64,000 nt of DNA from Candidatus Woesearchaeota archaeon (GCA_018303325.1 JAGVYH010000067.1:4167-68166), one strand, 5' to 3'; positions 19,420-63,905 are shown, numbered from the stretch's first letter. The notes: a model not told the origin generated them from the sequence alone. Numbers and translations: made by a program.

Positions 19420-19680
19420 TTCTCGTCATGTTTTCTGCCCACACCCTGTTTGTGGGACGCAGTCCACAGTCACATGAATAAAAATGTAAGAAGGTTTGAA
19501 GGTCAGATGGTTTGATGGTAACGACTGATTTCCGTCGTTCCATTCGTAGTACCTTCAGACCATCAAACCATATTACCATCTTACCTTTTTTAGTGAACGA
19601 GTTGGACATGCCAGGAACGAAACAAACAAGTAGAATATAAAAATAATTATAGGTAGGGTAGCTGCGTCCATAAACGAAAA
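19420..19680 (+). repeat. Repeat family A, copy A1 (TIR-bounded MITE-like element with a ~50-bp central hairpin)
   Basis: 5' box GTTTGTGGGACGCAGTCCACAGTCACATGAA at 19449. Central hairpin gtaagaaggtttgaaggtcagatggtttgatggtaacgac...gtcgttccattcgtagtaccttcagaccatcaaaccat. 3' box GTGAACGAGTTGGACATGCCAGGAAC at 19593..19617. Inverted 5' box ...GCTGCGTCCATAAAC at 19661. Confidence 0.75.
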
Positions 19681-19772
19681 AAACAGACACATTTCAAAAA
19701 CATTTAAATAGTATAACCTACTAAGGACTAAACTAAGAGTAATAAATAACATCATAAAAAGAGGTTATATTA

Positions 19773-20207
19773 ATGCCAATGCGTGAATCAGACAAACATT
19801 TCTTATGGTCATTGTATTATGCAGTAGGTATTATTCTTATATGGAAAGGTGTATGGGAAGGTATTGGTTCTTTACCTTTGTTAGAACTGCCGTTTGTCAG
19901 TTTATTTGTTGGTTTAGTAATGTTAACCTTTTCAGGGCTATTAATGAGAGAGTTTGATCCATTGGGTGGTTTAGAAAAAGGTGTTCAGAATATGCTGCAT
20001 GGAATACATCATCATCCGCAAAAAGAAGAGTTTACTATTTCATATTTTGACAATAAGAAGAATAAAGAAGTAAAGATTGAAGCGCATAAATTAAAGCTTA
20101 TAGAAAAAAACGTATTGTCTTTCCATGAACATGGTAAAGAAATATTTATACCTATGCATAGAATAAGGAGAATACACAGAAAAGGTAAAGAAGTGTGGAG
20201 ATTGTAA
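19773..20207 (+). CDS. Membrane protein (2 TM) with a C-terminal region resembling DUF504/MJ1316 (IPMHRIRRI)
   Basis: Hydrophobic N-terminus. C-terminal motif EIFIPMHRIRRIHRKG. Confidence 0.4.
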   Translation: MPMRESDKHFLWSLYYAVGIILIWKGVWEGIGSLPLLELPFVSLFVGLVMLTFSGLLMREFDPLGGLEKGVQNMLHGIHHHPQKEEFTISYFDNKKNKEVKIEAHKLKLIEKNVLSFHEHGKEIFIPMHRIRRIHRKGKEVWRL

Positions 20208-20368
20208 CTAGCTAAGTGTGTATCCAGAATATAAGAACATAAAGCAAAGCGCAAATTTTATAAACCATTTATCCTTTAATTATTTATCTTTTAATTATCT
20301 CATAAAAATCAGAAAATGAGAAATGCGTAAAAAAAGTAAACTTAGAATCAAAAAAAGAGGTACAAATA

Positions 20369-20680
20369 ATGGTTGAGTTCATTACAGGCACATTACAAAT
20401 AACTGCTGCAACATTATCAGTTGTCGCTGGTATTATCGCAATCAGCCTGTTCAAAGTTTCTCATGTAAATGTTGGGCTGAGGGCATGGAAATATCTTATT
20501 GTTGCACTGGTGCTTTTCGCTATTGAAGAGGTAATTGGCGCATTGGTTTCATTCAAAATTATTGCTCCTACATTTCTGACGCATGTCATACCTGCAGGAA
20601 TAGTTGGGTTTATCATTATTGCGCTGACATTAGAAATTAATTATGTAAACACAGAAAAAGGCAGGAGGAACAAAAGATAA
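20369..20680 (+). CDS. Small membrane protein (3 TM), paralog of the next gene
   Basis: ALVLFAIEEVIGAL matches GILIFVLEEVFTIL in the 20683 gene. Confidence 0.5.
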   Translation: MVEFITGTLQITAATLSVVAGIIAISLFKVSHVNVGLRAWKYLIVALVLFAIEEVIGALVSFKIIAPTFLTHVIPAGIVGFIIIALTLEINYVNTEKGRRNKR

Positions 20681-20682
20681 AA

Positions 20683-21021
20683 ATGGTTTTAGAATATTGT
20701 CTGACAAAGGTTGCGCCATTGTATAATCTGGCGTTAGTGGTAATTGTAATAATCATGTTTATCAAATTATTCATGACTCAAAATAAACAAAGATATACTA
20801 AACCATGGGCATTAATTTTTGCAGGCATATTGATATTTGTACTTGAGGAAGTGTTCACTATATTAAGGCATTCACAAATATTTGTCTTGCCAACATATTT
20901 TAATGGTATTTTTGAAATAATAATAATCTCGTTATTTATCTATGCTATGCTTCTTCAGAGAGAATATAATGCATTTAATTATTCATTAAACAGAAATAAG
21001 AAAAAAGTAAAAAGAAGCTAA
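20683..21021 (+). CDS. Small membrane protein (3 TM), paralog of the previous gene
   Basis: See 20369..20680. Tandem arrangement with a 2-nt gap. Confidence 0.5.
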   Translation: MVLEYCLTKVAPLYNLALVVIVIIMFIKLFMTQNKQRYTKPWALIFAGILIFVLEEVFTILRHSQIFVLPTYFNGIFEIIIISLFIYAMLLQREYNAFNYSLNRNKKKVKRS

Positions 21022-21034
21022 AGAGAAAAATAAA

Positions 21035-21298
21035 ATGTTTGAAAACAAAAGAGGAGTAACACCATTAATGGTTACAATCATTTTAATAGGTTTTGCAGTA
21101 GCTGTAGGTTCTATAGTTATGAGTCTTGGCGAGGATTATGTTCAAGATATACCTGATACAGAGACTTCCCAGCAAGACAATGTTGTATGTGTTGGGACAG
21201 CAGGTGAACCATTGAAAGATCTCATGGTCAAATACATAAATGATGAAATAACAGTTGAGCAGTATTTGCAGGGCGAAGGTATTCTGAATAAAGAGTAA
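21035..21298 (+). CDS. Archaeal type IV pilin-like protein (class III signal peptide, DUF361-like)
   Basis: MFENKRGVTPLMVTIILIGFAVAVGSIVM matches the K/R-G-(I/V)-(S/T)-P-(I/L)-(I/V)-AT-(V/I)-LLI prepilin pattern. Confidence 0.6.
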   Translation: MFENKRGVTPLMVTIILIGFAVAVGSIVMSLGEDYVQDIPDTETSQQDNVVCVGTAGEPLKDLMVKYINDEITVEQYLQGEGILNKE

Positions 21299-21334
21299 AA
21301 CAGATTAAAAGTGTAAATTTTTCTTAATATTTTT

Positions 21335-21400
21335 CTTCTGCTCTCAATCCGTTTGTGGGACGCAGTCCACAGTCTTATGAAAAATTAATTTTTTTTGAGC
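21335..21400 (+). repeat. Repeat family A, truncated copy A2 (5' box only)
   Basis: CTCTCAATCCGTTTGTGGGACGCAGTCCACAGTCTTATGAAAAATTA with no 3' box. Confidence 0.6.
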
Positions 21401-21462
21401 AGTCGAAAAAAGAAATCAAAGGTGTAACAATAAAGGAAATAGAAAAATAGATATGATTAATA

Positions 21463-22605
21463 TTACCCAAACATTTCTATATAAGTATTATCCATTTTCT
21501 CTTTCTGCTTGACTTTTTCAATTGCACTTAGAATATCTGTCTGGCATATTGTTGTTCTGTCATTACGTATGGCAAAATAACCTGCTTCTGTACATACTGC
21601 CTTAATTTCTGCGCCAGAGAAACTATCCATTTTTTTAATAAGAATATTTAATTTAACTGTCTTGTCAATGGTCATGTTTTTTGTATGAATCTTAAATATC
21701 TGCTCAACACCTGCTTTTGTTGGCAAAGGCACTTCTATCAGCCTGTCAAACCTGCCAGGCCTTAAAATTGCAGGATCAAGAATATCTTTTCTGTTAGTGC
21801 ATCCTATAATTTTTACATTGTCTAAGCTTTTGAATCCGTCCATCTCAGCTAGGAACTGCATAAAAGTTCTTTGAACTTCTCTCTCGCCGCTTGTCCCAAT
21901 CTCTATTCTTTTCGCTGCTAATGCGTCAATTTCATCTATAAAAACAATAGATGGCGCTTTAGCCCTTGCTAGATCAAACATTTCTTTGACCATCTTTGCA
22001 CCTTCTCCAATAAATTTTTGGACAAGCTCAGAAGCTACAATTTCTATAAACGTGCTTTTAGTTGAGTTGGCAACTGCTTTTGCTAACAAAGTTTTGCCTG
22101 TGCCTGGAGGACCATGAAGCAAAACGCCTTTTGGTGGAGTGATACCTATTTTTTTAAACAATTCCGGCTTTAATAATGGCAGTTCAATAACCTCTTTGAT
22201 TTCATTAATTGGGGCTTCTAAACCACCAACCTCAGCCCATGTTGTTGTTGGTTTTTCTATGATCACAAAGCGTTCAACATTGAATTTAGTTGTAGATGAG
22301 ATTTTTTGGATTATGTTAAGATTTTTTTGTTCTGTCAGTACACTGTCTCCAGGCGCTAAACCCTTTAAATCACTTGCAATATTAACAAGAAATTGGTTGC
22401 CGTTTGGTGTTCTTATGATTGCTTTGTCTTCTATGATATCACAAACCTCGCAAACCATTAAAGCTGGCTCTCTTAATCGTTTCAATTCTTTTTGCAATTG
22501 CGTAACTGTCTCTCGAAGAAGCTTGTTTTCTGACTCCAAACGATGAGAACTGGCAGTATAATTGTACATTACATGATCAAGAGCATCTGATGTTTTTGTG
22601 TCCAT
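21463..22605 (-). CDS. pan: Proteasome-activating nucleotidase PAN (AAA+ ATPase)
   Basis: N-terminal coiled coil, Walker A GVLLHGPPGTGKTLLAKAVA, Walker B IVFIDEIDA, AAA second region of homology. Confidence 0.9.
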   Translation of the reverse strand: MDTKTSDALDHVMYNYTASSHRLESENKLLRETVTQLQKELKRLREPALMVCEVCDIIEDKAIIRTPNGNQFLVNIASDLKGLAPGDSVLTEQKNLNIIQKISSTTKFNVERFVIIEKPTTTWAEVGGLEAPINEIKEVIELPLLKPELFKKIGITPPKGVLLHGPPGTGKTLLAKAVANSTKSTFIEIVASELVQKFIGEGAKMVKEMFDLARAKAPSIVFIDEIDALAAKRIEIGTSGEREVQRTFMQFLAEMDGFKSLDNVKIIGCTNRKDILDPAILRPGRFDRLIEVPLPTKAGVEQIFKIHTKNMTIDKTVKLNILIKKMDSFSGAEIKAVCTEAGYFAIRNDRTTICQTDILSAIEKVKQKEKMDNTYIEMFG

Positions 22606-22692
22606 GACTTCAGGTTTGATTTATATATTTATAAAGTTTGTGCTGATTTATTTGGTTTAGAATATATGAAGTTAACTATAAACTCTTAATAA

Positions 22693-23769
22693 TTACACGA
22701 CAACAAGCTTTTTCGGCGCTTTTGTCAGTCGAATAAGTTTATTTCTTTCCAATAAATAATCATCTTCTATTCTTATACCAAACTTAAGTTTAAAATAAAT
22801 GCCTGGCTCTATAGTAAATATCATTCCATTCTCAAATTTCTCTTTAGATGTTTCTTTAAGGTTAGGCAGTTCATGAATCTCTAAACCAATGCCGTGCCCT
22901 AAACCATGTGTAAAATATTTGTCATATTTCCCAAGATGTTTTCTCGCTGTTTTTACAACATTAAGGATTTTCTCTCCAGAGCTTATTTTGTTTGCAGCGC
23001 ATTCTTTTGTTTCATAAACAAGATTATAAAATTTTTCTTCTTTATTAGTGGGCTTGCCGATAAATATTGTTCTTGTAACATCTGTGCAATATCCTTTGTA
23101 CCTTATCCCAAAATCAATTATGCAGAAACCATTAAGCTTATCGTTGTTAGTAACATGATGCGGTATAGCTGCATTTTTTCCAGAAGCGACAATTGTTGGA
23201 AACGAAGGAGCATGATTAATTAGTTTTATCTGCTGTTCAATAAATTCTTTAACCTGGACTTCTGTATTTAGTTTTTTGCGCTGGATTTGTGCTAATGCTT
23301 TTGACCAAATTTGTTCAGTTAATCTGCATGCTTTTTTGTAAATATTTATTTCATCATTGGTTTTTATAGCTCTGAGATTTAACAGCTCGTCGGAGATATC
23401 AACAAATTTGCATTTAAATAATTTTTTTAAGTTTTTAAGCTCCTTTACAGTTAAGTATGAAAAATTAACCCCTATTTTTTTTATTTTGTGGGTTTTTGTT
23501 AATTTTTTAATCTGCTCGAGAGTGTTTTTTTTGAATTGTAAAAATGGTTTTATTCTTGAACTGGCTTTTAATTCTTCAAAATCCAAAGATGAGCAATAAA
23601 TTCGTGGGAAAAATTTTGAAGACATCAGCATCAATGCATATTCTGGGCTAATATTAGAGAAATAAAAAAAAGCAGGATCTTTTAGTTTTGTGCTGAATAT
23701 TAAAGCCAAAGGCAGTTTCAGCTTTACTAATTTTTTTTGAAATTCTTTAATTTTATTGTTCATTAGCAA
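22693..23769 (-). CDS. M24-family peptidase (Xaa-Pro aminopeptidase/prolidase-like)
   Basis: Pita-bread fold metal ligands HGLGHGIGLEIHE...FTIEPG...IRIED. Confidence 0.8.
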   Translation of the reverse strand: MLMNNKIKEFQKKLVKLKLPLALIFSTKLKDPAFFYFSNISPEYALMLMSSKFFPRIYCSSLDFEELKASSRIKPFLQFKKNTLEQIKKLTKTHKIKKIGVNFSYLTVKELKNLKKLFKCKFVDISDELLNLRAIKTNDEINIYKKACRLTEQIWSKALAQIQRKKLNTEVQVKEFIEQQIKLINHAPSFPTIVASGKNAAIPHHVTNNDKLNGFCIIDFGIRYKGYCTDVTRTIFIGKPTNKEEKFYNLVYETKECAANKISSGEKILNVVKTARKHLGKYDKYFTHGLGHGIGLEIHELPNLKETSKEKFENGMIFTIEPGIYFKLKFGIRIEDDYLLERNKLIRLTKAPKKLVVV

Positions 23770-23801
23770 ATGCTTTAAATAAGAAGATATATAAAGTTAT
23801 T

Positions 23802-24209
23802 GTGTACAAAAGTATATTAAAAGCACAAAATAATAGAAACATTATCGTGCTTTTATATATCCATAAATATGTTCGGCATGATAAAGGGGTGGATAAAATG
23901 GTATGTTACATAATACCGACGATTGCTGCGATTGTACATGGAATATCAAGAAAAAAAATAAAACTATTGGGAAATGATGAAACACAGAAACATCTGTTTT
24001 TACTTTTGACAGGCGGCGCAATTTTTGGATTTATCGATCATTTATGGAACGGTGAGTTATTTATAAGCAAAAATCTAGGAAAAGATCTGTTGCTTGGAGT
24101 TACGATAACAATTATCATATTTTTGGTGTGGGGAATAATTGTCTTTGCAGAAAAAGCTAAACAAAGCCAAGCTACTGAAGAAAAAATAATTAAAGACACT
24201 GAAAAGTAA
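23802..24209 (+). CDS. Small membrane protein, hypothetical (the start may be the internal Met at 23898)
   Basis: Two hydrophobic helices (IIPTIAAIVHGI, LLGVTITIIIFLVWGIIVF). Confidence 0.4.
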   Translation: MYKSILKAQNNRNIIVLLYIHKYVRHDKGVDKMVCYIIPTIAAIVHGISRKKIKLLGNDETQKHLFLLLTGGAIFGFIDHLWNGELFISKNLGKDLLLGVTITIIIFLVWGIIVFAEKAKQSQATEEKIIKDTEK

Positions 24210-24386
24210 AATCAAAAAATTGAAAGATAATTATGATGATAAACCAAACATTATAATAATTATAATGTCGGACATAAATACTTATACAAATAGTTATGTC
24301 CGACAAATATAGTAAGTGACATGATTTGTCTAAAAATTTAGGTCACTTACTATAGTTTATAATAATCCACAAGATTATAATAATCA

Positions 24387-25091: not shown

Positions 25092-25135
25092 GTTGAAGTT
25101 AATTGTTCATATCTATTTATGAATTTAAATCAGTA

Positions 25136-25235
25136 AATAGAGAACTTTGAAAAACTTTATAAAAATGGGTTTTTCAAAGAGCTCTATTAAGGGTTTTGAC
25201 TATTTTAATAAGTTATTCAAAACCCTCAATAGTAT
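25136..25235 (+). repeat. Repeat family C, copy C3
   Basis: ATAGAGAACTTTGAAAAAC...TTTTCAAAGAGCTCTATTAAGGGTTTTGACTATTTTAATAAGTTATTCAAAACCCTCAATAG, between TyrRS and SDR. Confidence 0.7.
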
Positions 25236-25237
25236 AT

Positions 25238-26317
25238 TTATCTTGAAACATTAAATTCTTTTATCTGCTCTGCTAATTTTGTGGCTTTTTTGCTTTGATT
25301 CAATTTGTTTCTTACTGGCTCAAGCAATTGGTTAAGATGGCTTGCAACAGCCTGTTTCAGGTCAGCAGGATGAAGCTCGCCGTTGACAAATTTCTGTTCT
25401 AATTCTTCATAATTGCAAAATTCTAAATTCCCGCCCCATTTTGCAGGCCTTTCAATAACAAAATTATCAAATTTACTGAAAATAATATATTTGCAGTATT
25501 CAAGGATTGGGTTTTCAAATGTCTGTTTTTCCGGACAGTAAGCTTTAGATATTTTTCGTTTTATATCTTCGGCATTATCATTCATGAATATTGCGCTGTC
25601 TGGCTTAGACTTGGACATTTTCATTGCCATCATTCTTTCTTCCTGAGAAACATCTTGTCCTGGTGGCTGCAAAAGACCTTGAAGCATGTGATGGTTTACG
25701 ACAACAGGTTTCCAGAATCCTAATTTTGACCCAATTTCTCGTGCAAGAACATTAACCTTTCTCTGATCCATACCTAATTGAGTTATATCAGCGCCAATTT
25801 CAAATATATCAGCGCATTGCATGCAAGGATAAAATATTTGTGATGCCTGCAGAGCATCTTTCTCGCTTCTTCCCATTATTTGAGAACATCTAACTATTCT
25901 ATTAACAGTAGAATTTCTTGCTATTTGCATAACTGTTTTCCAGTATGTGCCATTATTGATTAAATCTGTGCTTCTCATGAACTTAACATTTTCTAAATCC
26001 ATATCGCATGCTTTCCACACTTCTATAAGATAATCGCCGACAATATTGATTTTCTCTAAATCTCCGCCTAACTTGTTATTAGCCCAGCCATGCCAATCAG
26101 CAGCTAGCATAACAAATTTAACCCCTGCCTTGGTCATTTTGTTAATATTAATAGCTCTCAATAAACCTTGAGCGATGTGAATATTAGTTCCTGAAGGCTC
26201 AAACCCGTCATAAGCAACAGGATGCTTCTTCTTTTCAAAAAGCTCTCTTAGCTCTTCCTCTGTAAGAATCTCTTCTCCGACTTCTTTTACTAGCTTAATT
26301 TGTTCTTCTGTTTTCAT
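25238..26317 (-). CDS. tyrS: Tyrosyl-tRNA synthetase (archaeal type) with a degenerate HIGH motif
   Basis: Collinear with archaeal TyrRS: GFEPSG, ADWHGW matching ADLHAY, a KMSKSKPDSAIFMND KMSKS loop, and C-terminal GGNLEFCNYEELEQKF..GELHPADLK. The HIGH position reads NIHIAQG. Confidence 0.7.
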   Translation of the reverse strand: MKTEEQIKLVKEVGEEILTEEELRELFEKKKHPVAYDGFEPSGTNIHIAQGLLRAININKMTKAGVKFVMLAADWHGWANNKLGGDLEKINIVGDYLIEVWKACDMDLENVKFMRSTDLINNGTYWKTVMQIARNSTVNRIVRCSQIMGRSEKDALQASQIFYPCMQCADIFEIGADITQLGMDQRKVNVLAREIGSKLGFWKPVVVNHHMLQGLLQPPGQDVSQEERMMAMKMSKSKPDSAIFMNDNAEDIKRKISKAYCPEKQTFENPILEYCKYIIFSKFDNFVIERPAKWGGNLEFCNYEELEQKFVNGELHPADLKQAVASHLNQLLEPVRNKLNQSKKATKLAEQIKEFNVSR

Positions 26318-26425
26318 GTTAAATGTATTGTTTATAGTAAGTATATAAATATTTTTGTTGTAAAAGATAAAGTAAACATTAAAGTTTTAAATTAAGAAAG
26401 AAAAACAAGCTAAAAAGGTGATTAA

Positions 26426-28301: not shown

Positions 28302-28389
28302 GTGTTTATATTTTATTTTTAGTATATTTCTATTTGTTTTGTATAATTTTTTAAAATTTCATGTTTTGTTTAGCTGATTAATATCTTTT

Positions 28390-28575
28390 TCTCGCTCACA
28401 ATTCAGTTTACCGCTCTCAATCCGTTTGTGGGACGCAGTCCACCGTCTCATGAAAAATTATTAGTTATTCGTTCTTCGCTATTCGTCATTCGTAACTAAG
28501 AACGAAAAACGAAGAAAGAATAACCGTTTTATCATAGTGAACGGGTTGGACATGCCGGGAACTAAAATAAAAAAA
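28390..28575 (+). repeat. Repeat family A, copy A3
   Basis: CACAATTCAGTTTACCGCTCTCAATCCGTTTGTGGGACGCAGTCCACCGTCTCATGAA, then central hairpin gttattcgttcttcg...cgaagaaagaataac, then GTGAACGGGTTGGACATGCCGGGAACTAAAA. Confidence 0.75.
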
Positions 28576-28778
28576 ATGCCGACAATCTGCAACCTGAAGG
28601 TTGCAGTATTTAATGTTGGCATTTTTAAATTCTTGACGAGCACTGCTCGTCAAGTCTAATAATGCCGATGAAGTCGGCATTATTTTTATAGAAAAGACCC
28701 ATCTGTGACCTTAAGGTCACAGTATTCGCTTTTCCAAATAAGATAAATTTAAAAAGATTCAATAATATAAATGAATTA

Positions 28779-31060: not shown

Positions 31061-31062
31061 TT

Positions 31063-42480: not shown

Positions 42481-42627
42481 AGCTCGATGGGGTTAAAGAA
42501 TGTTTATATATTTATTGTAAATTTAATGGGGATGATTTATTCAATTCATCATGGTTTATAAGATTAGGCACTTGTTAAAGCAAGGATTTGTTAGCTGATT
42601 TCTTGTTTTTAAATCTCTTTTTCTTGT

Positions 42628-42880
42628 TCACAATCTTGTTTCTCGTTCTCAGCTGGTTTGTGGGACGAAGTCCACGATTACATGAAAAATTAAAAAAGGT
42701 GCTGGGTGCTAGGTGCTGGGTGCTAGTTACGATGAATTATCGCTGCTAGCACCTAGCACCTAGCACCCAGCACCTAGCACCTAGTTTTCATAGTGAACTA
42801 TTTGGACATGCCAGGAACTGAACAAAAAACTTAAATTAGTGAACAATGGCTGCGCCCCTGAACTAAAAAACAAAAGAAAA
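42628..42880 (+). repeat. Repeat family A, copy A4 (central hairpin is a 29-bp perfect GGTGCTGGGTGCTAGGTGCTGGGTGCTAG palindrome)
   Basis: CACAATCTTGTTTCTCGTTCTCAGCTGGTTTGTGGGACGAAGTCCACGATTACATGAA...GTGAACTATTTGGACATGCCAGGAACTGAAC...GGCTGCGCCCCTGAACTAAAAAACAAA. Confidence 0.75.
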
Positions 42881-42888
42881 CAAATACA

Positions 42889-50080: not shown

Positions 50081-51280
50081 TTACAACCCCATGCTTTGTT
50101 CAAGAGCAGAAACGATTTTAGGAATAAGTGTCTCTGGGATTGGAAGACTAATCTCTCTTGTTCTTCCAAATCTGCCTTTAGATATAACTTTCGCGGTTAT
50201 AATCCCCAACATATCCAACTCACCAATAATATCAGAAACTCTTCTTTGTGTTAATGGCCGTAAACCAACCTTTTCACAGATTTGTTTGTAAACATCATAA
50301 ATTTCGCCGGTAAATATTGCTTCACGTTTTTTAAAATATAAGATAGCATATAATGTTGCCTGCTGTTGTTTTGGTTGTGTTTTTACAATATCAATAATTC
50401 TGTCCTTTTCTATTTTTTCCTCTGCCTCGTCGATATGCTCTATATTAATTGTTTTATTGTTTGCTCTTTCAGCAATCTCTCCTGCAACTCTTAGAAGTTC
50501 TAATGCTCTTCTGGCATCGCCGTGTTCTCGGGCCGCATATGCTGCGCATTTTCCGATTACACCGTCAGACAAAACACCTTGTTTGAAGGCAAAAGAAGCG
50601 CGCTTCTTTAATATGTCTTGTAATTGTAATGCGTTATATGGGGGGAATACAATTTCTTCTTCGCTTAAAGAAGACTTTACTCTTGGATCCATTGTATCAG
50701 TAAACATAAGATCATTTGATATTCCAACTAATGTTACCTGGCTGTTTTTCAATTCTGCATTCATTCTGGTGAGATTATATATTATCTCGTCGCCAGCCTT
50801 TTTTACGAGCTGATCAATTTCATCCAAAACCAGAATAAACTGCATTTTTTGTGTTGTTATTGCATGATTAAAGATTTTGTAGACTTCTTCAGTTGGGAGG
50901 CCAGTGGGTGGTATTTCTTTACCCAATTCTCTGGCTAATTGCGCAACCAGCCTGTATTCAGTATCTGCAACTTTGCTCAGTTTACAGTTTATATATATTA
51001 TTTTTACGGGTAAATTGTTTGTTTTTGCCAGCTCCATCATTTGATTAGAAACATATTTAGCAGTTAAAGTCTTACCTGTGCCTGTTTTACCATAAATAAA
51101 GACGTTTGACGGCTTTTCTACTCTTAAACAAGGCGCCAAGATGTTAGCTAGTTGTTTTACCTCGTTCTCTCTATGGATAATTTCTTCTGGTGTGTATTGT
51201 GACTGTAAAACAGCGCGTTCGCTAAATAAACTGTCTTTTTTAAGAAAAGTCTCGAAAAAACCCTTTAAACTCTTTTCCAT
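50081..51280 (-). CDS. cdc6: Orc1/Cdc6 replication initiator
   Basis: Walker A IYGKTGTGKTLTAKYV, Walker B ILVLDEID, sensor, C-terminal winged helix. Confidence 0.9.
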   Translation of the reverse strand: MEKSLKGFFETFLKKDSLFSERAVLQSQYTPEEIIHRENEVKQLANILAPCLRVEKPSNVFIYGKTGTGKTLTAKYVSNQMMELAKTNNLPVKIIYINCKLSKVADTEYRLVAQLARELGKEIPPTGLPTEEVYKIFNHAITTQKMQFILVLDEIDQLVKKAGDEIIYNLTRMNAELKNSQVTLVGISNDLMFTDTMDPRVKSSLSEEEIVFPPYNALQLQDILKKRASFAFKQGVLSDGVIGKCAAYAAREHGDARRALELLRVAGEIAERANNKTINIEHIDEAEEKIEKDRIIDIVKTQPKQQQATLYAILYFKKREAIFTGEIYDVYKQICEKVGLRPLTQRRVSDIIGELDMLGIITAKVISKGRFGRTREISLPIPETLIPKIVSALEQSMGL

Positions 51281-51473: not shown

Positions 51474-51537
51474 AGCTTAAAGCATGATAAGCTTAAAGTA
51501 TGATGAGTTTAAAGTATGATAAGCTTAAAGCAGAGCA
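51474..51537. repeat. Four tandem 16-bp repeats, (G/A)AG(C/T)TTAAAG(C/T)ATGAT
   Basis: gagcttaaagcatgat aagcttaaagtatgat gagtttaaagtatgat aagcttaaagcagagc. Confidence 0.8.
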
Positions 51538-51603
51538 TCTTTATTTCTTCTTTCGAACTTCAAATTTTCCTTTTGACGCCAAATATATCTTTGTATTCTT
51601 ATA

Positions 51604-51735
51604 CTTCTTTCCTTCTTTCCTTCTTTCCTTCTTTCCTTCTTTCCTTCTTTCCTTCTTTCCTTCTTTCCTTCTTTCCTTCTTTCCTTCTTTCCTTCTTTCC
51701 TTTTTCCTTTCCTTTCCTTTCCTTTCCTTTCTTCA
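51604..51735. repeat. Polypyrimidine/polypurine microsatellite (CTTTCCTT)n followed by (CCTTT)n, a mirror repeat with H-DNA potential
   Basis: About 12 units of ctttcctt then cctttcctttcctttcc. The ORFs called here (FPSFLLSF... and KKERRKEG...) are translations of the repeat. Confidence 0.9.
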
Positions 51736-52214
51736 TATATTTTTCGTTAATTACAATCTGTGTATTAAACCTCGTGGTTTGCTGTGATTGGGTTGGCGAA
51801 TTTAAGGCTTTTTTTGATTTTATTCTCATTTTAACTTTGTTATTATTTTAAATATTATTTCATACAAAAATATTATGTTTTTGTATTATTTTGATATTAT
51901 ATATAATTTTTATTATTATCTTATTATATTATTATTATAACTCTTTATTTTCTATATTGAAATAAAATACTTATTATAAATATAAAATGTAAAATTATAA
52001 CAAAAAAGTAAAAGAGCAAACAAAAAAATTATTATAATATTATATTATTATTAATATCAAACATAATAAATATAATTAATAATAATCATCAATCATTAAT
52101 TGTAAATAATAAAAAGAAAATTATAAAAATAAATAATCAATTAAAATAAGTTATAATTGTTTATAATTTTGGTTGATGTTAAAGATTTCGATAAAAATAG
52201 TATAAACATATCTT

Positions 52215-54661: not shown

Positions 54662-54869
54662 AACAAATAAGATAAGATTCTTGTGGTCTGCTATAAATTC
54701 TTTTTCTTTTTGAACTTAAATGTTTTAATCATTGCTAATATGAGGCGAATACATAAATTTAACCATAAATTAAGCTTTTTTCCTCTTTTCCAGCCCAAAT
54801 TATTCATAAATTTTATAAATACGTTTAATTTAGTCTCTTTTTAATTAATAATTAATCTTTTAATTAATA

Positions 54870-54966
54870 ATAGAGAGCTTTGAATAACCTCTTTTATTTG
54901 ATTTTCAAAGCGGCTCTATTAAAGGTTTTGAGGATTTTTATAAATTATTCAAAACCTTCAATAATT
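54870..54966 (+). repeat. Repeat family C, copy C4, also carrying the likely histone promoter
   Basis: TAGAGAGCTTTGAATAACC...TTTTCAAAGCGGCTCTATTAAAGGTTTTGAGGATTTTTATAAATTATTCAAAACCTTCAATAATT. TTTTATAAA sits ~45 nt upstream of the histone ATG. SD GAGGTGG. Confidence 0.65.
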
Positions 54967-54977
54967 AATGATTTGAG

Positions 54978-55199
54978 GTGGTAATCATGGCAGGTAAAAG
55001 AATAATTCCTCTTGCTGCAATGGAAAAGATTATTAAACAGGCAGGCGGCGAAAGAGTATCAGATGGCGCAAAAGTAGCATTAAAAACAGTCCTTGAAGAA
55101 ATTGGCGAAGAGATTGCGATGAATGCAGTCAAACTGGCTGCCCATGCAGGAAGAAAAACAATAAAAGCAGGAGATGTTAAGTTAGCATCAAAAAGTTAA
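54978..55199 (+). CDS. Archaeal histone (HMf-like histone fold)
   Basis: MAGKRIIPLAAMEKIIKQAGGERVSDGAKVALKTVLEEIGEEIAMNAVKLAAHAGRKTIKAGDVKLA. Confidence 0.9.
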   Translation: MVIMAGKRIIPLAAMEKIIKQAGGERVSDGAKVALKTVLEEIGEEIAMNAVKLAAHAGRKTIKAGDVKLASKS

Positions 55200-55507
55200 T
55201 TTTTGCTTTTTGTGATTTTTTCAATCTTTTTTCTCGTTTTTAATTACAAACTGGGTATTATACAACAAAATGCTTTGAATTTTGTGTACATTTGAACTAT
55301 GTTCAAATTGTACCCCGCAGCTTGCTGCGACACCCAGTTTGTAATCTTAAAAATGCCGGTCACGAAGTGACAAATTCGTCGTATACAACAAAATGCTTTG
55401 CATTTTGTGTGCATCTGAACTTGTTCAGATTCCACAGCTTGCTGTGGTTGGGTAGTCGAATTTGAGGCATTTTTTTTGATTCAGTTTACTGAATTCAATT
55501 CATCTTT

Positions 55508-55680
55508 CCACAATCAATCTAGTTTTCCGCTCTCAGCTCGTTTGTGGGCGAAGCCACACGTCTCATGAAATATTTTTAAAGTTTTTTTAATAGTTTTATC
55601 GAAAGAGCAATACCGTGTAAATAAACTAAAATATCATCATGAGACGTGGGACTGCGTCCCTAGTACTAAAAAACAAACGA
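55508..55680 (+). repeat. Repeat family A, copy A5 (near-perfect TIR of the dyad box)
   Basis: 5' end CGTTTGTGGGCGAAGCCACACGTCTCATGAAAT. 3' end TCATCATGAGACGTGGGACTGCGTCCCTAGTACTAAAAAACAAACG. The 3' end is the inverted complement of the canonical 5' box. Confidence 0.75.
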
Positions 55681-55701
55681 TAATAAATTATACCAAGAAT
55701 A

Positions 55702-56622: not shown

Positions 56623-56684
56623 ATATTAAAGATAAGAAAGGTTATATATAAAGTTTTCATCATCTTTTTGGTGGGTTATTATTG

Positions 56685-56900
56685 TTCTCATCATGGTTTC
56701 TGCTCAAAACTTGTTTGTGGACAAAGTCACACATCACATGAATAAAAATGTAAGAAGGTTTGAAGGTCAGATTGTTTGATGGTAACGACTGATTTCCGTC
56801 GTTCCATTCGTAGTACCTTCAGACCATCAAACCATCTAACCTTCTTACCTTTCTTCGTGAACTAGTTGGACATGCCAGGAACGACTAAAAACAAAAAAAA
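56685..56900 (+). repeat. Repeat family A, copy A6 (same central hairpin as A1)
   Basis: CTGCTCAAAACTTGTTTGTGGACAAAGTCACACATCACATGAATAAAAATGTAAGAAGGTTTGAAGGTCAG...GTGAACTAGTTGGACATGCCAGGAACGACTAAAAAC. Confidence 0.75.
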
Positions 56901-56990
56901 TTAATTATATAATATTATCTTTCACAAAGTGCCTCTTTCACAAAAACTCGACAAAAACTTTATAAGCAAAACATAGTTTTATACTTACTT

Positions 56991-57521: not shown

Positions 57522-57563
57522 ATTAATATAAATTAACTATAACTTAATTATATTATTAATCAT

Positions 57564-60500
57564 TCATATATCTTCTAAACTTTCTTCTATTCTAATTTCT
57601 TGAATTTTTTCTTGTTGTAATAGCTTTAACGAATAATTTCTGCTTGCTTGTTCAAATGTTTCAGTTACGTATGATGGTAAAAGCAGCGAAATGTGATCTT
57701 CTCGTATAAATCTTCTTTTTTGACTTCCTTTCTTGTCTATCTCCATCCAAACCACTAAAGAATCAATATCATGCCTATTTTTTTTACCTGCGCACCCATT
57801 TATAATACGGTGATACCTTGCAATTAATTCCATCCTGTCTAATCTTCTTTTATACTGTCTTAATCTAAATATTTCTTCAACTTCCGTTATACTAAAATAT
57901 CTTTTTCCATCGAACGCAACAAATTCTAACCTTCCTTTTTCGTCTTCAACAATTCTTTCAAGATTGGTTGTATTCATCCTTCTTTTTAAGTCTTCAATTA
58001 TCATATCTGTTTTTTTCGTATCGGTAAGTGGTTTAGGAGATTGTTCTTTCTTTGAATCCTCACTTGGCTTGTTACGACGTTCTGAATACAATGGTTGTGT
58101 TTTAGTTATAAATCTGTACACTTTTTCTATTGGAATCGGTTTAAACGAATAACCTCTCGCAACATCTTCAAATGGTTTATCTGCAATTCCTTTAAAAATA
58201 TCATCTATGCTTTCTTCCTTAATAAACCACCTTGCTCCCTTATACCTGCATTTTTGCACACCTTTCCCAACATATACTTTAAATGCCTTGCGTGTTGGTG
58301 CATTTCCCCCTTCACGAATTCTTCCCCACACTTTTTTTGCATATTTTAATTTGTCTTTGGGCCAGTTATAAACATCATATACTGCGGTCATTACAAAATA
58401 TCTTTCTCCATCTACTGCTAAAAATTCAAGCGTGCCTTTTTCACTTCTAACCTTTCTTTCTAAACCATCATAATTTAACCTCTCAAGATCAACATTTTCA
58501 TTATATGACCTTAATGTTTCAATTATTTCTTTAACATCAACCAATTCCTTTCTTCTTGAAGGATGTTGTAATTTTCTCAATGCCTCTGCTTCTATTTGCC
58601 TTATTCTTTCTCTGGTGACAGCAAAATCCTGCCCAACTTCTTCTAATGTATGATCATCCTCTTCACCTATTCCAAATCTCATTCTTAACACTTTTTCTTC
58701 TCGTGGGTGTAATGTTGCAAGAACTCTTGTTAGTTTCTCATGAAGATTTTTATCGCTTACAACCACATCAGGTTTTGGTGCTGTTTTATCTTCAATAAAA
58801 TCACCAAGCTCGTCTTTTCCATCTTCATTAATCTTTGTTTGCAACGAAATTGGCTCTTTTGCTACTTTTTGAATCTTCTTAACTTTCTCAACAGAAATTT
58901 CCATTTTTGCTGCAATCTCTTCTGAATTTGGTTCTCTTCCCAACTCCTGAACAAGATACCTTGTGGTTTTTACTAACTTATTTATTATTTCGATCATATG
59001 CACAGGAATTCTTATTGTCTTTCCCTGGTCAGCTATTGCTCTTGTAATTGCCTGCCTTATCCACCATGTCGCGTATGTTGAAAATTTATACCCTCGTTCC
59101 CATTCATACTTTTCAACTGATTTCATTAACCCAATATTACCTTCTTGCACCAAATCTAAGAATTGTAACCCTCTGTTTGTATATCTCTTTGCGATGGAAA
59201 CAACTAATCTTAAGTTTGCAGTCGTCAAATCTTCTTTAGTTTTTTCATACCTCCTTCTTTCTCTTTCTATCGCAGAGACCCGTGCGCCAATATCCAAAGC
59301 TGCTATTCCTGTTTCTTCTTCGTATTTTTCGATTCTTGTGCAACTTTCATTATATTCGCTATTATCTCTTGTTACCTTTCTTCCTTCATGCGTTTCTTTA
59401 TACCTTTCTTCATATTTCTCTTTCTGCTTCACTGTGTTTGAATAATCTCTAACATATTTAAGAACCTCTTCCTCAAATTGCTGACGCCAATTATAATATA
59501 TTTTTCTCACAGATGCAAAAAATAAGATATCCTTTTGACTAATATCTTCGAATGAGGTATAAACTGTGAACCTATCATCTGGCGCATTTTCCTCTTTTTT
59601 TACTCCCTTCTTATCCTTTTCCTCTTTAAACCTAGAATAAATATCTGCAAATAACTTGAAAATAGCAGATTTATTGTTTAATGCATCTTTATCTTCCCCT
59701 ATATCTTCAGTCTCTTCAATATCTTCATCCTCGTCAATTCTGTGGGGTGAATAAACAGCACATGGTCGTATTTCACCATCATTTATTTTCTTTTCAGCTT
59801 CTTTTAATTTATTGAGAGAGTAATTTAATCCATACAATAATTTAGCATAATTTAACAAGTACATATCTCTTTTCTTTCCAAGTTCTATCTCTTTATCGCG
59901 GGTTAATAAATCAATATCCCCCATCTGCCTAAAATATGTCCTCACCATATCTTTTCCAGCGCCTTTTTCTAAGTCAGCATCCTTTTTTGTTATTCCCTCT
60001 TCGCTTCTTTCTTCTCTTTCTGGTTCTATATGTTCTTCACTTGCAAACTCTTGCTCATCTTCAGGTAGAGTTTTATCTATTCGTGATTCCAAAAATTTCA
60101 CATATTTTTCGATTTTTCTTTCTTTTGCAGACAATGCACGAGCATCTTGTTCTGCTTTACTTACAACCTCTCCTTTTTTTTCTTTAGCATCTTGTTTTCT
60201 TAAAGGAAGAATATGCACAGTAGCGCCTTTTGTTGTCGTGTCTGCTTTTTCTTGTCTGTGTTGTTCTGCTCTTTCAACACTTTCACAATACGCTTTAAAT
60301 AAATCATCTAATAATTCTTTGCTTGCATTAAAAGATGTTTTGTATAATGATGTATTAATGGCATTAAGCGCCCCAAGAACTTGTTTATAATCTAAAAAAG
60401 CACCTTCGCCAAATATTTTCAGCATTAGCCAATTTTTCTCAACCCAGACATAAGAGGGGTCGTCTCCTTTCCATTCACTTTCAACTTTTGCTATAAACTC

Positions 60501-60893
60501 TTTAAAATATTCCCTCAAACTAATCATAGCAATGCTTAAATCTTTGTTTCTGTCATTTCCAACTTTACATGCCTTAAAATATACTTGTTTAGAAATTAAT
60601 TCCTTTTCCCCGCCGACAACACCAAAACTTTTAACAATATCATCTATGCTGAAAAACCCAAACTCTCCAACTTTTTCTTTTTCAATTGCCTGTCCAAGTT
60701 TCATTCCCTGTGTACTGTAAAGTGTTTTAAACAAACCAGGATATACTGCATTAACAATATCTATATCATCAAAACTAATGCTATGGAGAGCAGGAATTCT
60801 TTGATAGAAAACATAATCTTGTTTCAGCTTTTCAGCTGTTAACGACAGAGACCTATCTTTACTTTTCAAAAAGTATGAGATTACGTCGCCCAT
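57564..60893 (-). CDS. 1109-aa multidomain protein containing a complete bacterial-type primary sigma-70 (RpoD-like regions 1.2, 2, 3, 4; approx. nt 58550..59950), plus unique N- and C-terminal extensions with a repeated motif
   Basis: Seen in translation: [27 protein letters not shown] (region 1.2). [82 protein letters not shown] (region 2). [14 protein letters not shown]...[27 protein letters not shown] (region 3). [48 protein letters not shown] (region 4). These match E. coli RpoD nearly residue-for-residue in the conserved blocks. The C-terminal extension has two copies of LEF(L/V)A(V/F)DG(E/K)RYF. Confidence 0.8.
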
Positions 60894-61025
60894 GGTAAAA
60901 TAATGCTTATAATAAGTTTATAAATCTACCTAATTTTACCCCGCACATTTTGGCGATTGGGTAATTCATTTGATTGTATTTTTGAAATGGATTCAAGAAT
61001 ACAATTTTTAGGTTTAATACCATAC

Positions 61026-63296
61026 TTAACTTTGTGTCTCTTTAAGGAATGAGGTTAAATTTACTAATTCTTCTGCTCGAATACCTTTTGGTGAATCATC
61101 ACCTAATTCAGGTATAGTTGCTTCTAATTTCAATTTTCCGTCGCTAACTAAAAGTTCACATGCAGCAGTGATATCCCCCATAGAATACCCTAATCTGCTT
61201 GGCAAATCATCATAAGGGATTAAAGGGTTTGCGTCTTGTGGTAATGTAAGTTGTGCACTATCTACTTCTGCTGCAGTAATGGCAGCAGCTTCTAAACCAC
61301 TTTCAGCTTCTGCAGTATCCTCTACACTCTCACTATCTACTGATATTTGTCGTGCTGCATCCCTTTTGCTTTTAGACACAGTATATAATCCATATTTTTT
61401 CATCTCACTAGTCAAGCTTTCGACATCAACACCAACTAAAGAAATTGCACTTAATGAATATCCTTTAATTAAATCGCTAAATTGGTCGTCAACATATTTT
61501 GGCAGGGCAGGCTGTACATAATCTTCCCTTACAAAAGCAACTGTTTTTCCTTGAGATGATTGAAGGCCTTCCACTTTTAAGTACGTCCCTTCCGGCAGTT
61601 TTCCAGTACTTTGCAATATACATATATTTGCAGGATAAGAACTACTTGGAACTTTCTGACCATCATATTCTCTTTCACTGTACACCTTTCTGACTTCTTT
61701 CGCTTTGAAATATCTTTGTCCATTAATTGCCAAGAAATATAATGTTTCTGCGCCTTCAACAGTTTGTTCTAACCCTTTTGCGCTTAACATTTCTCCTAAT
61801 TCAACAGGAATTTCTTGTGGTGATCTAGTCGTTTCTGGTCGCGCTTTTCTTTGTACTGCTGGTAGTGCTCTTACTCTTTCTGTTCTCTCGATTCCTTCTG
61901 CTTTTTTTGGTGCTTCTGCTTTCTCTACTTTTGCAGCAGAACTATTATCAACATTTCGTCCTACTAATGGCTGTGGCCTATATCCGCACACACTGGTACC
62001 ATTATCTGCTAATTTTACTGCTTTATATTTTCCATCATATTCCATTGATTTACTTTTTCTTTTAGAATCTACACTTTCTCTTACTTTTTCTGGTAGAAGT
62101 CCAACTAGTGCATCTTCTCTATAAACTTTTGTTGAATTACCTTTTTCTCTTTTTACTGCCTTAACTTTACCTTGTTGCTCTAATTCTAACAATATTTGGT
62201 TAGGGATTAGATTATAACCTAACTTAGAGTAATCAACACCAAGAAACTTTGCTGATTCTGGCGCTGAATAATAACGTTGGCCTCTTATTTCATAATAAAT
62301 TGCGGATTCACTCGAAGGTTCACTTGTACTTTTTGCGCCCTCATCTGCTTCAGATGTTCTCTCAACTTTTTTAACTACTTTGTCTATACTTCTTTCCTCA
62401 CCAACAACGTGATAATTATCTTGAGATGCTGGTTTTGGAGTAAATTCACTAAAAGTGTCCTTAAGAGTATGATGATACTTCTTAGGTAAAATAGTTTCAA
62501 ATATATCAAAGGAATATACTCCGCTCCTTTTTCCTTTGTAAATAACATCCTTTTCTTTTCCATCTCTTTCTAGCTGTGTTCTTTCTTTGTCATCAACACA
62601 CCTGCCGATATATTGATGCAACGCACTTATTGATGTCTTAAACATATCTGCTATTTCGCTAATGCGATAATACTGCTCGCCCCCAATCTCAAAACATAAA
62701 ACTTCTTTCCCCTTCTTTGCTTTGCCTAATACCTTTCCAGTATCAGTTCTCTGTGGTTGCGTGTGTGTTGGCTCAGTTCTTTGTTCAACTCTTCCGAGCT
62801 TTCTTACTTTTTCTATAACTTCGTTTCCAGCAATAAGTTTGAGTCTAGTATTTAAAAATCCAATATATTCTGTTACACGATTTAATGCTACATCCATAGC
62901 AGCTTTTTTTACAGGATCTTTGTCCGATACTTCGCAACTATTACAAAGATATAATATTTCAACTTCTTGCAATCTTTCTTTTGCTAATTTTAATCTCTCT
63001 ATCACCTTGCCTTTTGCATATGTTTCAGCATTTTTTTCAAGAGAGCCAGCAAAATCAATCAAATTAGAATACTTTAAAACAACAAAATTATAATCTGCTA
63101 CTACTTCTAACTCTATATCCGCAATTGCAAATTCTTGTGTTACCTGAACATCATGAACCTTTTTTGAAGCGCTGTCTATTTTGTCTAAAACTGTTAAGAC
63201 TACCTGCTCGTTTACTTTTGCATTAAGAACATCTTGACTTACACCGAATAATCTATTTGCTTCGCTTAACATCTCTTCAAGTTTCATTGCTACCAC
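61026..63296 (-). CDS. 756-aa protein with three copies of the same (I/L)xGxxY(Y/F) repeat motif found in the sigma-fusion protein. Composition departs from the host (Ala/Glu/Val/Ser-rich, locally higher GC).
   Basis: EVLCFEIGGEQYYRISEIADMF, AIYYEIRGQRYYSAPESAKFLG, TLYFLAINGQRYFKAKEVRKVY. Co-oriented with the 57564 gene, 132 nt upstream of it. Confidence 0.6.
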   Translation of the reverse strand: MVAMKLEEMLSEANRLFGVSQDVLNAKVNEQVVLTVLDKIDSASKKVHDVQVTQEFAIADIELEVVADYNFVVLKYSNLIDFAGSLEKNAETYAKGKVIERLKLAKERLQEVEILYLCNSCEVSDKDPVKKAAMDVALNRVTEYIGFLNTRLKLIAGNEVIEKVRKLGRVEQRTEPTHTQPQRTDTGKVLGKAKKGKEVLCFEIGGEQYYRISEIADMFKTSISALHQYIGRCVDDKERTQLERDGKEKDVIYKGKRSGVYSFDIFETILPKKYHHTLKDTFSEFTPKPASQDNYHVVGEERSIDKVVKKVERTSEADEGAKSTSEPSSESAIYYEIRGQRYYSAPESAKFLGVDYSKLGYNLIPNQILLELEQQGKVKAVKREKGNSTKVYREDALVGLLPEKVRESVDSKRKSKSMEYDGKYKAVKLADNGTSVCGYRPQPLVGRNVDNSSAAKVEKAEAPKKAEGIERTERVRALPAVQRKARPETTRSPQEIPVELGEMLSAKGLEQTVEGAETLYFLAINGQRYFKAKEVRKVYSEREYDGQKVPSSSYPANICILQSTGKLPEGTYLKVEGLQSSQGKTVAFVREDYVQPALPKYVDDQFSDLIKGYSLSAISLVGVDVESLTSEMKKYGLYTVSKSKRDAARQISVDSESVEDTAEAESGLEAAAITAAEVDSAQLTLPQDANPLIPYDDLPSRLGYSMGDITAACELLVSDGKLKLEATIPELGDDSPKGIRAEELVNLTSFLKETQS

Positions 63297-63430
63297 CCTT
63301 AATCTAATTATTTACTTTTTCAATATTATTTGTAGGAGAAGTTCAACACTAATTTATAATAGTTATGATTGTATTTTGTATACATTTCTTATTTTATAAC
63401 GACATGGTAACAAAATAAGTATTTGTTTTA

Positions 63431-63695
63431 CAAATTAAGCAACTACTAAGCCTGCCTCAAATTTGTCAGCTTTGCTATTGTATAGCAAATGCACTAAATT
63501 TTCGTAATTAGTCGTTGCATTTGCTATGTTGAATGAACTGAACTATATTGATAAGTAGTTTTAGTTCATTGGCTAAATCTCGTAAGACTATAGAGGAAGC
63601 GAAAACACTTGAATAAGTCATTTGTTCTTTATAACCTGCTTATTCTGCGGGTTTTCGCAAAAGCTGACTGACAGGCTTAGTAGTTGCCAAATTAA
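63431..63695 (+). mobile_element. MITE (family B, copy B2): 16-bp TIR plus 8-bp TSD
   Basis: TIR is GCAACTACTAAGCCTG (63439..63454) pairing with CAGGCTTAGTAGTTGC (63672..63687). Direct repeat CAAATTAA flanks it at 63431..63438 and 63688..63695. Conserved core TTTGTCAGCTTTGCTAT...ATCTCGTAAGACTATAGAGGAAGCGAAAAC...GTTTTCGCAAAAGCTGACTGACAGG. Confidence 0.8.
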
Positions 63696-63697
63696 TA

Positions 63698-63905
63698 TTT
63701 TCTTGCTCTCAGCTCGTTTGTGGGACGCAGTCCACCGTCACATGAAACTGTTTGAAAGCTCGAAAGTTATCTGTGTAAAGCGCACTTTCAAGCTTTCTAA
63801 CTTTCAAACCTTCTTACCTTTCTTCATAAACGTGTCCAATCAGGTAAGAAATAAAAAAATAAATATGTAGTAAGACGTCTGGCTTCGCCTAGGAACTAAA
63901 TAAAT
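63698..63905 (+). repeat. Repeat family A, copy A7, abutting MITE B2
   Basis: TTCTTGCTCTCAGCTCGTTTGTGGGACGCAGTCCACCGTCACATGAAACTGTTTGAAAGCTCGAAAG...GACGTCTGGCTTCGCCTAGGAACTAAATAAAT. Confidence 0.7.

Follow-up and report, generated by a model that had tools for sequence, protein, structure and literature searches.

What kind of element is repeated seven times on one strand of a 64,000-nucleotide stretch of DNA from a Candidatus Woesearchaeota archaeon (GCA_018303325.1, JAGVYH010000067.1:4167-68166)? A sequence-only reading of this stretch (hereafter, the window) had described seven copies, here called A1 to A7, in which constant arms enclose a changing central hairpin, and had suggested a possible strand-specific function, likening the exchangeable hairpin to integron attC or cassette logic. 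Comparison with ~130 further copies, gathered from the related metagenome-assembled genome (MAG) JACQSP01 and two metagenomes (loci numbered with the prefix L), leads to a different answer: the family shows every testable feature of a MITE (miniature inverted-repeat transposable element), a non-autonomous DNA transposon, and this reading is given a probability of about 85%.

Complete copies are non-coding and 185–320 bp long. Most start with GTATTTGTTTAG and finish with CTAAACAAATAC, which have high information content in the profile and form a terminal inverted repeat of 12 bp found at both ends of 49 copies. Between these ends the element is asymmetric, with a long left arm and a short right arm. 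In the left arm the terminal repeat is followed by CTGAT, by a T-rich spacer that includes a TTAAT box and by 1–4 tandem units of ~18 nt (CYGCTCNCAAYNNNGTTT), the spacer and units being confined to this arm; next comes the core GTTTGTGGGACGCAGTCCAC, 43–103 nt from the terminal repeat and followed by CGTCTCATGAA. With the outer terminal repeat, the T-rich spacer and the ~18-nt units included, the element begins 40–100 nt to the left of where it had first been drawn. The near-palindrome reported in the left arm is present as this core, a strongly conserved imperfect palindrome, GTTTGTGGGAC-GCA-GTCCAC, in which pairing of GTGGGAC with GTCCAC leaves one extra G. A right arm follows 80–292 nt beyond the left-arm match in 78 cases and is of two types: R2 repeats the core in inverted form, as a GGGC/GCCC variant (..CATGAGACGTGTGGCTGCGCCCAGGAAC), R1 is a decayed version of the palindrome (..CATAGTGAACnnGTTGGACATGCCAGGAAC), and both continue with (T/G)AAACAAATAC. 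R1 and R2 occur together in A1, A4, A7 and L018. The variable center is AT-rich for ~70 nt in some copies and a long hairpin in others. The outer left sequence TTTAGCTGATTAA (for example, window 28369–28381) has a stop codon in each of the three frames (TAG, TGA and TAA); the coding sequences of many upstream genes end no more than a few bases away, and the gene at L034/L057 appears to use the element's TGA.

The flanks of the copies record insertion. The 8-mers outside the terminal repeats matched at ≥7 of 8 positions in 12/33 copies (one element was counted on both strands, making the true count 11/32), compared with 0.85% of mismatched pairings (binomial P ~4e-17), and copies with both terminal repeats and such a duplication measured 184–265 bp. 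The duplications are AT-rich and 8 bp long, as in AAATCTAA, TCTTAATC, AAATAAAC, ATTAGTTT and AATAATTA, and were seen with copies of the R1 type (L083, L080) and of the R2 type. A filled metagenome site (L051, 2440–2760) differs from its empty MAG counterpart (L033, 690–820) by exactly the element plus one GATGATTT, and two further presence/absence cases were found between relatives. An identical nested insert lies between CCACCGT and CTCATGA at L023, L046, L047 and L074; because the same secondary insertion is shared at different loci, composite copies have spread as units. The element inserts into AT-rich 8-bp targets, which it duplicates, and it has moved since the sampled genomes diverged. 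Small size, no coding capacity, terminal inverted repeats, a fixed-length duplication and paired filled and empty sites, all of which identify MITEs, were thus found together. For movement, a transposase supplied in trans would bind the terminal repeat and the subterminal palindrome and make cuts staggered by 8 bp. Among known elements, those of the IS66 type have ends beginning with GTAA and generate duplications of 8 bp.

Several observations weigh against a MITE. In ~700 kb, comprising the window and the related loci, no pair of terminal repeats enclosing a gene was found (pairs 100–5000 bp apart, unpaired arms), nor any multicopy protein, nor any structure like that of an insertion sequence (IS), with inverted repeats plus a duplication. 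The sequence-only reading had also considered that the arms might belong to a longer IS; an intact IS did not turn up there. The seven window copies have no recognizable duplication, so that the duplication evidence comes from relatives, and all four window copies that could be compared (A1, A2, A3 and A7) occupy orthologous positions in the MAG, which makes the window copies old and immobile. The best non-orthologous pairs are ≤87% identical overall (73–87% for paralogous copies), which means that there has been no burst of late. In addition, the core at orthologous copies is far better conserved than expected of a dead transposon, and co-orientation of neighboring copies is unusual for cut-and-paste MITEs.

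Copies in the window were located by three methods. With ≤2 mismatches, the 16-mer GTGGGACGCAGTCCAC occurred 5 times, always on the + strand (0.01 expected). Repeat finding returned seven left arms, at 19428, 21331, 28404, 42636, 55520, 56693 and 63696, and 4 copies of the right box GTGAAC..GTTGGACATGCCAGGAAC. A profile hidden Markov model (HMM), built from ~45 left arms and run with filters off, returned exactly seven copies, all + (E 2e-23 to 2e-6), at 19380, 21313, 28364, 42584, 55482, 56679 and 63678; on the minus strand of the window it found no independent copy, the sole match being A5's own inverted right arm. The count of seven copies is borne out by repeat finding and by the HMM, and the flanking genes do run both ways, as had been noted. 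The density is 7 per 64 kb, or 109 per Mb, and the exact 20-nt core (GCA or GAA loop) is retained in 5/7 copies and, outside the window, in most arms. The sub-structure originally described also held: A1 and A6 have a hairpin in common (191 nt, 86% identical), A5 has an AT-rich center and a clean inverted right arm, and A2 is truncated, with neither hairpin nor right arm, while its MAG ortholog L032 is complete and has both a heptad hairpin and R1. The long hairpins of A3, A4 and A7 are each different. In A5 the palindrome variants are exchanged between the two arms, an arrangement that an inversion between its inverted cores would produce. Independent assemblies of further Rifle samples (L086/L087) match A4 at every base, and L089 differs from it by one 7-nt hairpin unit; since A4 is reproduced in this way, the window sequence is not an assembly artifact. 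Coordinates are listed in Table 1.

Table 1. Positions of the seven window copies and of their parts, counted from the first nucleotide of the window
Feature	Position	Strand	Description
A1, full element	19379..19628	+	outer terminal repeat GGTTTGTTTAG at 19379-19389; orthologous copy is MAG locus L015
A1, core GTTTGTGGGACGCAGTCCAC	19448..19467	+	imperfect palindrome, one extra G
A1, hairpin	~19485-19586	+	8-nt tandem units in stem
A1, right box R1	19593-19618	+	followed by GAAACAAACA
Remnant of second, inverted-core right arm (GGTAGCTGCGTCC..AAAC)	19657..19683	+	downstream of A1; R1 plus R2 layout as in A4, A7 and L018
A2, left arm only	21313..21385	+	core 21351-21370
A3	28363..28572	+	terminal repeat GTTTTGTTTAG at 28363-28373; 18-nt unit present twice; core 28424-28443
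A3, hairpin	~28458-28525	+	heptad TTATTCG x5; R1 at 28537-28562
A4	42584..42888	+	terminal repeat GGATTTGTTAG at 42584-42594; core 42656-42675, loop GAA
A4, heptad hairpin (GGTGCTR)	42697-42784	+	R1 at 42793-42818
A4, second right arm, inverted core GGCTGCGCCCC	42839-42876	+	followed by AAACAAATAC at 42879-42888
A5	55482..55678	+	left arm with GGGC-type core 55540-55559; AT-rich center
A5, inverted right arm TCATGAGACGTGGGACTGCGTCCC	55637-55660	+	element end ..CTAAAAAACAAAC at 55678
A6	56679..56900	+	most diverged copy; core GTTTGTGGACAAAGTCACAC at 56713-56732; A1-type hairpin; R1 56857-56882
A7	63678..63907	+	core 63716-63735; octad hairpin ~63750-63823; R1-like box 63827-63853; ortholog L002
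A7, inverted-core right arm and terminal repeat (GGCTTCGCCTAGGAACTAAATAAATAG)	63870-63907	+	

Window and MAG cease to be syntenic precisely where A7's left arm lies (window 63600–63720 compared with L002 and L033). In the MAG, the left flank of A7 in the window adjoins a different, inverted copy (L033), and the A7 ortholog L002 has another left flank. Read from these junctions, the break suggests a repeat-mediated rearrangement.

The uniform orientation of the window copies had been assigned a chance of 1.6%. That figure is correct for 7/7 under independent random orientation, but neighbors do not behave independently: adjacent copies on the same contig are co-oriented 26:9 outside the window (p=0.006; 31:9 with the window included), and at 74% neighbor concordance six agreeing pairs running, that is, seven copies, have a probability of ~0.16. 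Genome-wide, both orientations occur, even on single contigs. The same-strand run in the window would reflect a moderate family-wide tendency of neighbors to co-orient rather than a strand-specific function. According to the sequence-only reading, random orientation together with clear target-site duplications would mark an ordinary MITE; the 8-bp duplications are clear, whereas orientation is mixed but, at 26:9, not random.

Genomic context was classified in 84 cases. Thirty-six lie between convergent genes, 20 + 20 between tandem genes in the two senses and 8 between divergent genes; background gene pairs are 19% convergent and 17% divergent, making copies 2.2-fold enriched between convergent genes. 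Both ends of the element face gene 3′ ends ~2:1. The convergent enrichment and the 20:20 tandem split place the copies mostly downstream of genes, with no tie to the direction of transcription. The left-to-right direction of the element opposes the regional gene majority in 65/102 copies (65 vs 37; p=0.007, the copies not being fully independent), and this figure and the 26:9 ratio would fit ~85% polarity towards a large-scale feature such as replication. A comparison of orientation with replication direction, which had been suggested as a check, gave no link to the replication-like (gene-strand-corrected) component of GC skew (r = -0.004 +/- 0.005; 37 vs 38) and no flip in orientation across the AT-rich region beside cdc6, the likely origin. 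Third-position skew along the window was too noisy for placing the origin. Next to the Orc1/Cdc6 gene (50081–51280), window 51474–52170 contains a 16-nt repeat x3.7, a (CTTCTTTC)x15 microsatellite and ~330 nt of extremely AT-rich sequence; from this composition it is likely a replication origin, and no repeats of the origin recognition box (ORB) type were recognized in it.

Orientation also bears on whether the family is the relic of a single-strand transposon, either of the IS200/IS605 type or a REPIN moved by RAYT, whose strand-specific, replication-coupled movement would give uniform orientation. The subterminal imperfect palindromes with a bulged base, the inverted doublet architecture of A5 and the local co-orientation resemble such elements, but these families make no duplication and are without terminal inverted repeats, both of which are present here; orientation is also unlinked to the replication-like skew component and stays the same on either side of the probable origin beside cdc6, and no Y1 transposase was seen. 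We attach almost no weight to this alternative.

Conservation of the core raises a more substantial alternative to an element that is a MITE and nothing else. In nine orthologous pairs the core differs at 4/180 positions, compared with 34/180 in the 20 nt upstream (Fisher 1.5e-7), a comparison biased in that loci were retrieved through the exact core. Among partners not selected via the core, differences numbered 3/100 in the core and 26/100 in the adjacent 20 nt (P=6e-4 even at half rate); the core has therefore been constrained after insertion or restored repeatedly by recombination. Copies could be kept for service to the host as exapted elements resembling REPs or BIMEs, either as hairpins in 3′ untranslated regions that protect or terminate transcripts or as palindromes recognized by a putative DNA-binding or chromosome-organizing protein of the host, and such a role can coexist with a MITE origin. 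Besides the constraint at orthologs, this is consistent with the exact cores in 5/7 window copies although paralogs are only 73–87% identical, with the 2.2-fold enrichment between convergent genes and ends facing gene 3′ ends ~2:1, with the co-orientation of neighbors (26:9) and with the opposition to the regional gene majority (65 vs 37 copies). Core conservation is, however, also expected of a transposase-binding site or of refreshing by recombination between copies; close relatives differ by gains and losses of copies, the loss of hairpin and right arm at A2 has had no visible effect, and no protein is known to bind the palindrome. Archaeal termination requires T-runs, not hairpins. An exapted host element is possible, at odds we would place well below even; the core is probably where the transposase binds in lineages whose elements go on transposing. 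A bolder version is unlikely. In it, the palindrome GTTTGTGGGAC-GCA-GTCCAC would be bound by a dedicated protein and maintained by the host as a genomic signal with polarity, making it the equivalent, in these reduced archaeal genomes, of REP/BIME or orienting sequences; ~85% of copies would be oriented to a chromosome-scale process, and the palindrome would be the point at which hairpins are swapped between loci.

The swappable central hairpin of the sequence-only reading is real, and how it is swapped determines whether cassettes need be invoked. At least six recurrent hairpin types were recognized, with stems of 7- or 8-nt tandem units (GGTGCTR, TTATTCG, GTTwGwC, GAAAGCTy and GAAGGTTT). They had been described as copy-specific, and A3, A4 and A7 do each have their own, but the types recur at many loci, in all three genomes and with either right-arm type. 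Type-d hairpins also occur without any arms, tightly packed between cistrons, and a type-e hairpin lies inside a different palindrome. Because types recur, combine with either right arm and occur without arms, the hairpins are independent palindromic modules. Stand-alone GGTGCTR hairpins were seen 5–20 nt from start codons or ribosome-binding sites between cistrons (L044 ~4477, L045 ~1636 and L069 ~755), with arms AGGTG / CACCT that are Shine-Dalgarno-like and anti-Shine-Dalgarno-like. Small perfect palindromes cluster to the right of A3 (window 28570–28740; for example, ATCTGCAACCTGAAGGTTGCAGTAT and ATCTGTGACCTTAAGGTCACAGTAT) and are absent at the MAG locus L011, and further families of tiny palindromes sit inside copies from the MAG and the metagenomes (GTGGACTTTAA..TTAAAGTCCAC, GCACGGACA.. 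and TATACTAAAAGTGATTAATTT..).

Of nine orthologous pairs, five differ in the interior but share the left arm down to its locus-specific quirks. The replacements were type d against type b, type a against AT-rich sequence, type b against AT-rich sequence, type e against a short interior and type d against another element; in 4/5 of them the left breakpoint lies immediately after the core, and in pairs 7 and 8 the right arm differs as well. A3 and its ortholog L011 have the same hairpin, flipped; this flip and the gain or loss of a 7-nt unit between Rifle samples fit ordinary palindrome and microsatellite dynamics. Variable centers would be separate palindromic hairpin modules that have joined the arms and that homologous recombination moves from copy to copy. 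The route could be ectopic gene conversion, or a new copy could insert beside an old left arm and the sequence between the two direct cores then be deleted. L064, where a second full copy with its own duplication lies 119 nt downstream of an older left arm, may, from its layout, be an intermediate in such an exchange, and deletion between its two direct cores would give exactly the replacements observed. We infer that homologous exchange among the many copies is the simplest mechanism for the interior swaps, ahead of integron-like logic.

Under that logic, the core would be a site at which a dedicated recombinase exchanges hairpin "cassettes," as at attC. The differing interiors at 5/9 orthologous loci, the breakpoints right behind the core in 4/5 and an imperfect palindrome with an extra base, like sites that are read in folded form, all speak for it. 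But copies are dispersed singly and not in tandem arrays, the interiors hold no genes, the hairpins also occur armless, and Pfam searches of ten flanking proteins gave ordinary cellular domains and no recombinase or integrase, with no sign of a platform site. In pairs 7 and 8 the right arm changes with the interior, as would happen if the whole part rightward of the core were replaced, and since the core is the longest identical stretch between copies, homologous exchange would resolve there anyway. Cassettes of this kind are improbable in the extreme, and the integron analogy did not survive.

A further possibility is that the copies are small-RNA genes, transcribed from the TATA-like TTAAT box through the core and the long hairpin to a T-run. 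As read from the sequence, many copies have a block of TTAAT plus T-run 33–52 nt upstream of the core, and many hairpins are followed by a run of T4-6; moreover, the + strand folds slightly better (38 vs 19 copies) and G-U pairs number 279 vs 237. The strand difference nevertheless averages 1.4 of ~55 kcal/mol (Wilcoxon p=0.07, 57 copies), AT-rich promoter-like motifs are not significant at 32% GC, the interior is replaceable by unrelated sequence at the same locus, and the variable dinucleotide of R1 is not accompanied by a matching change at the opposing left-arm positions (by eye). Rfam gave 0 matches at gathering thresholds over the whole window and only sub-threshold generic hairpin matches at E<=10 over A1, A2, A5 and A6, leaving no Rfam match at either threshold. 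A small-RNA family is very unlikely. The strand-specific function proposed at the outset is likewise not supported, in view of the terminal repeats and 8-bp duplications, the presence of both orientations, the tandem contexts (20 vs 20), the near-equal folding of the two strands and the Rfam result. Two related candidates were rejected: a CRISPR-repeat-like left arm (GTTT, stem-loop, ..ATGAAA), with no Rfam CRISPR-DR match and no array, and a kink-turn between CATGAA and GTGAAC, in which the R1 dinucleotide variation is unmatched in the left arm (by eye).

Abutting A5, a non-coding stretch at window 55240–55490 (+) is 90–96% identical to L055 and L063. It has an internal duplication of ~69 nt, ends in a hairpin CCACAGC-TTG-CTGTGG followed by T8, has a related 3′ module at 51779–51819 and gave no Rfam match; its layout suggests that it may be an unannotated non-coding RNA gene. 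A second repeat family of ~135 nt occurs at window 3625–3771, 7623–7758, 25116–25251 and 54848–54983, with two internal dyads (AGAGCTTTGAA..TTCAAAGCGGCTCT and GGTTTTGA..TTCAAAACC); 4/4 copies have the same orientation, each just upstream of a minus-strand gene. An open reading frame of 1109 amino acids (window 57564–60893, minus strand) contains bacterial sigma-70 regions 1.2, 2, 3 and 4 (Pfam E 1e-6 to 1e-23); sigma-70 genes have been reported as prevalent in Woesearchaeota (PMC8204110).

The window is 32% GC, and Pfam matches to PolD DP1/DP2, Orc1/Cdc6, Hjc, a tRNA-splicing endonuclease and a PAN-like ATPase identify an archaeon. One of its proteins is encoded identically on scaffolds from the Rifle aquifer (ENA ANAN16-1 scaffolds and JGI metagenome Ga0209343). 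The window belongs to a groundwater woesearchaeote of that aquifer, a DPANN archaeon. When one genome per species was searched with the 20-mer core (185,579 species), 39 matches fell in a single organism, the Woesearchaeota MAG JACQSP01; one further match, inside a Desulfobacterales gene, was taken as chance. JACQSP01 is fragmented, with at least 39 exact cores and many copies at contig ends. A metagenome scan for the core yielded 47 more loci, and metagenome loci hold 49 exact cores. Synteny extends between the MAG and the window at 80–92% identity and between the metagenome loci and the MAG at 80–94%, which excludes a deeply diverged organism as the source of the metagenome loci and indicates that the data contain three related genomes. 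The family's known range is, so far, one genus-level group of Woesearchaeota. Viral contigs contained no match to the core, and a viral origin of the element was rejected; two R1 matches in them were coding DNA at 57% GC and were taken as chance.

Archaeal MITE families have been described in Sulfolobus, Halobacterium and Haloquadratum (reviewed in PMC10969869). For the MITEs of DPANN archaea (Woesearchaeota), only bulk counts have been published, among them "a Woesearchaea genome" with 105 MITEs/Mb, one of the highest archaeal densities (PMC11602168); the literature search returned no description of this element family. Like prokaryotic MITEs, the family is small and without coding capacity, has terminal inverted repeats and duplicates an AT-rich target over a fixed length; as in those, its copies are numerous, intergenic and strong in secondary structure, and relatives differ in their presence or absence. 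It differs from them in that no cognate IS was found in the ~700 kb, in its unequal arms (the left with a spacer and tandem 18-nt units), in its age and diversity (≤87% paralog identity) combined with a nearly invariant 20-nt subterminal palindrome, and in its host, a DPANN archaeon.

In its mosaic build and nesting, the family appears to work most like pneumococcal BOX (boxA-boxB(n)-boxC), RUP and SPRITE clusters and E. coli BIMEs, with which it shares constant end modules, a variable middle, mutual insertion and clustering (PMC10969869). Location downstream of genes and a per-locus composition that varies between strains are common to both, whereas the middle modules here, unlike those of BOX and BIME, are long (near-)perfect hairpins of 7–8-nt tandem units that are also free-standing. 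Neither BOX nor BIME is known to have clear terminal repeats or duplications. REP/REPIN-RAYT systems likewise have an imperfect palindrome after a conserved short motif, inverted doublets and a palindrome conserved far above background; however, REPINs are without duplication and need a single-copy RAYT gene flanked by REPs, while this family has 8-bp duplications and no palindrome-flanked gene was seen in the same ~700 kb. Integron attC sites share only the idea of recombination-prone constant ends around an exchangeable middle, together with an imperfect palindrome; here there is no integrase, attI, array or "cassette" gene, and copies are dispersed with duplications. The family could accordingly be assigned neither to REP/REPIN-RAYT, IS200/IS605-derived elements or integron cassettes and attC nor to known Rfam families, including CRISPR repeats.

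The kind of element is well known, and this particular family appears to be new. Four of its features deserve attention: how well the core is conserved, how neighbors partly share an orientation, how interiors are replaced and how hairpins are built from heptads. The conserved core and partial co-orientation would be of wider interest only if they reflect host functions. DPANN genomes are very small, yet this lineage carries roughly 100 elements per Mb, which break metagenome assemblies (many lie at contig ends), mark synteny breaks and reshape nearly every long intergenic region. With a consensus defined by its terminal repeat, its 8-bp duplication and its core palindrome, annotators can mask the copies and have a handle for finding the transposase.

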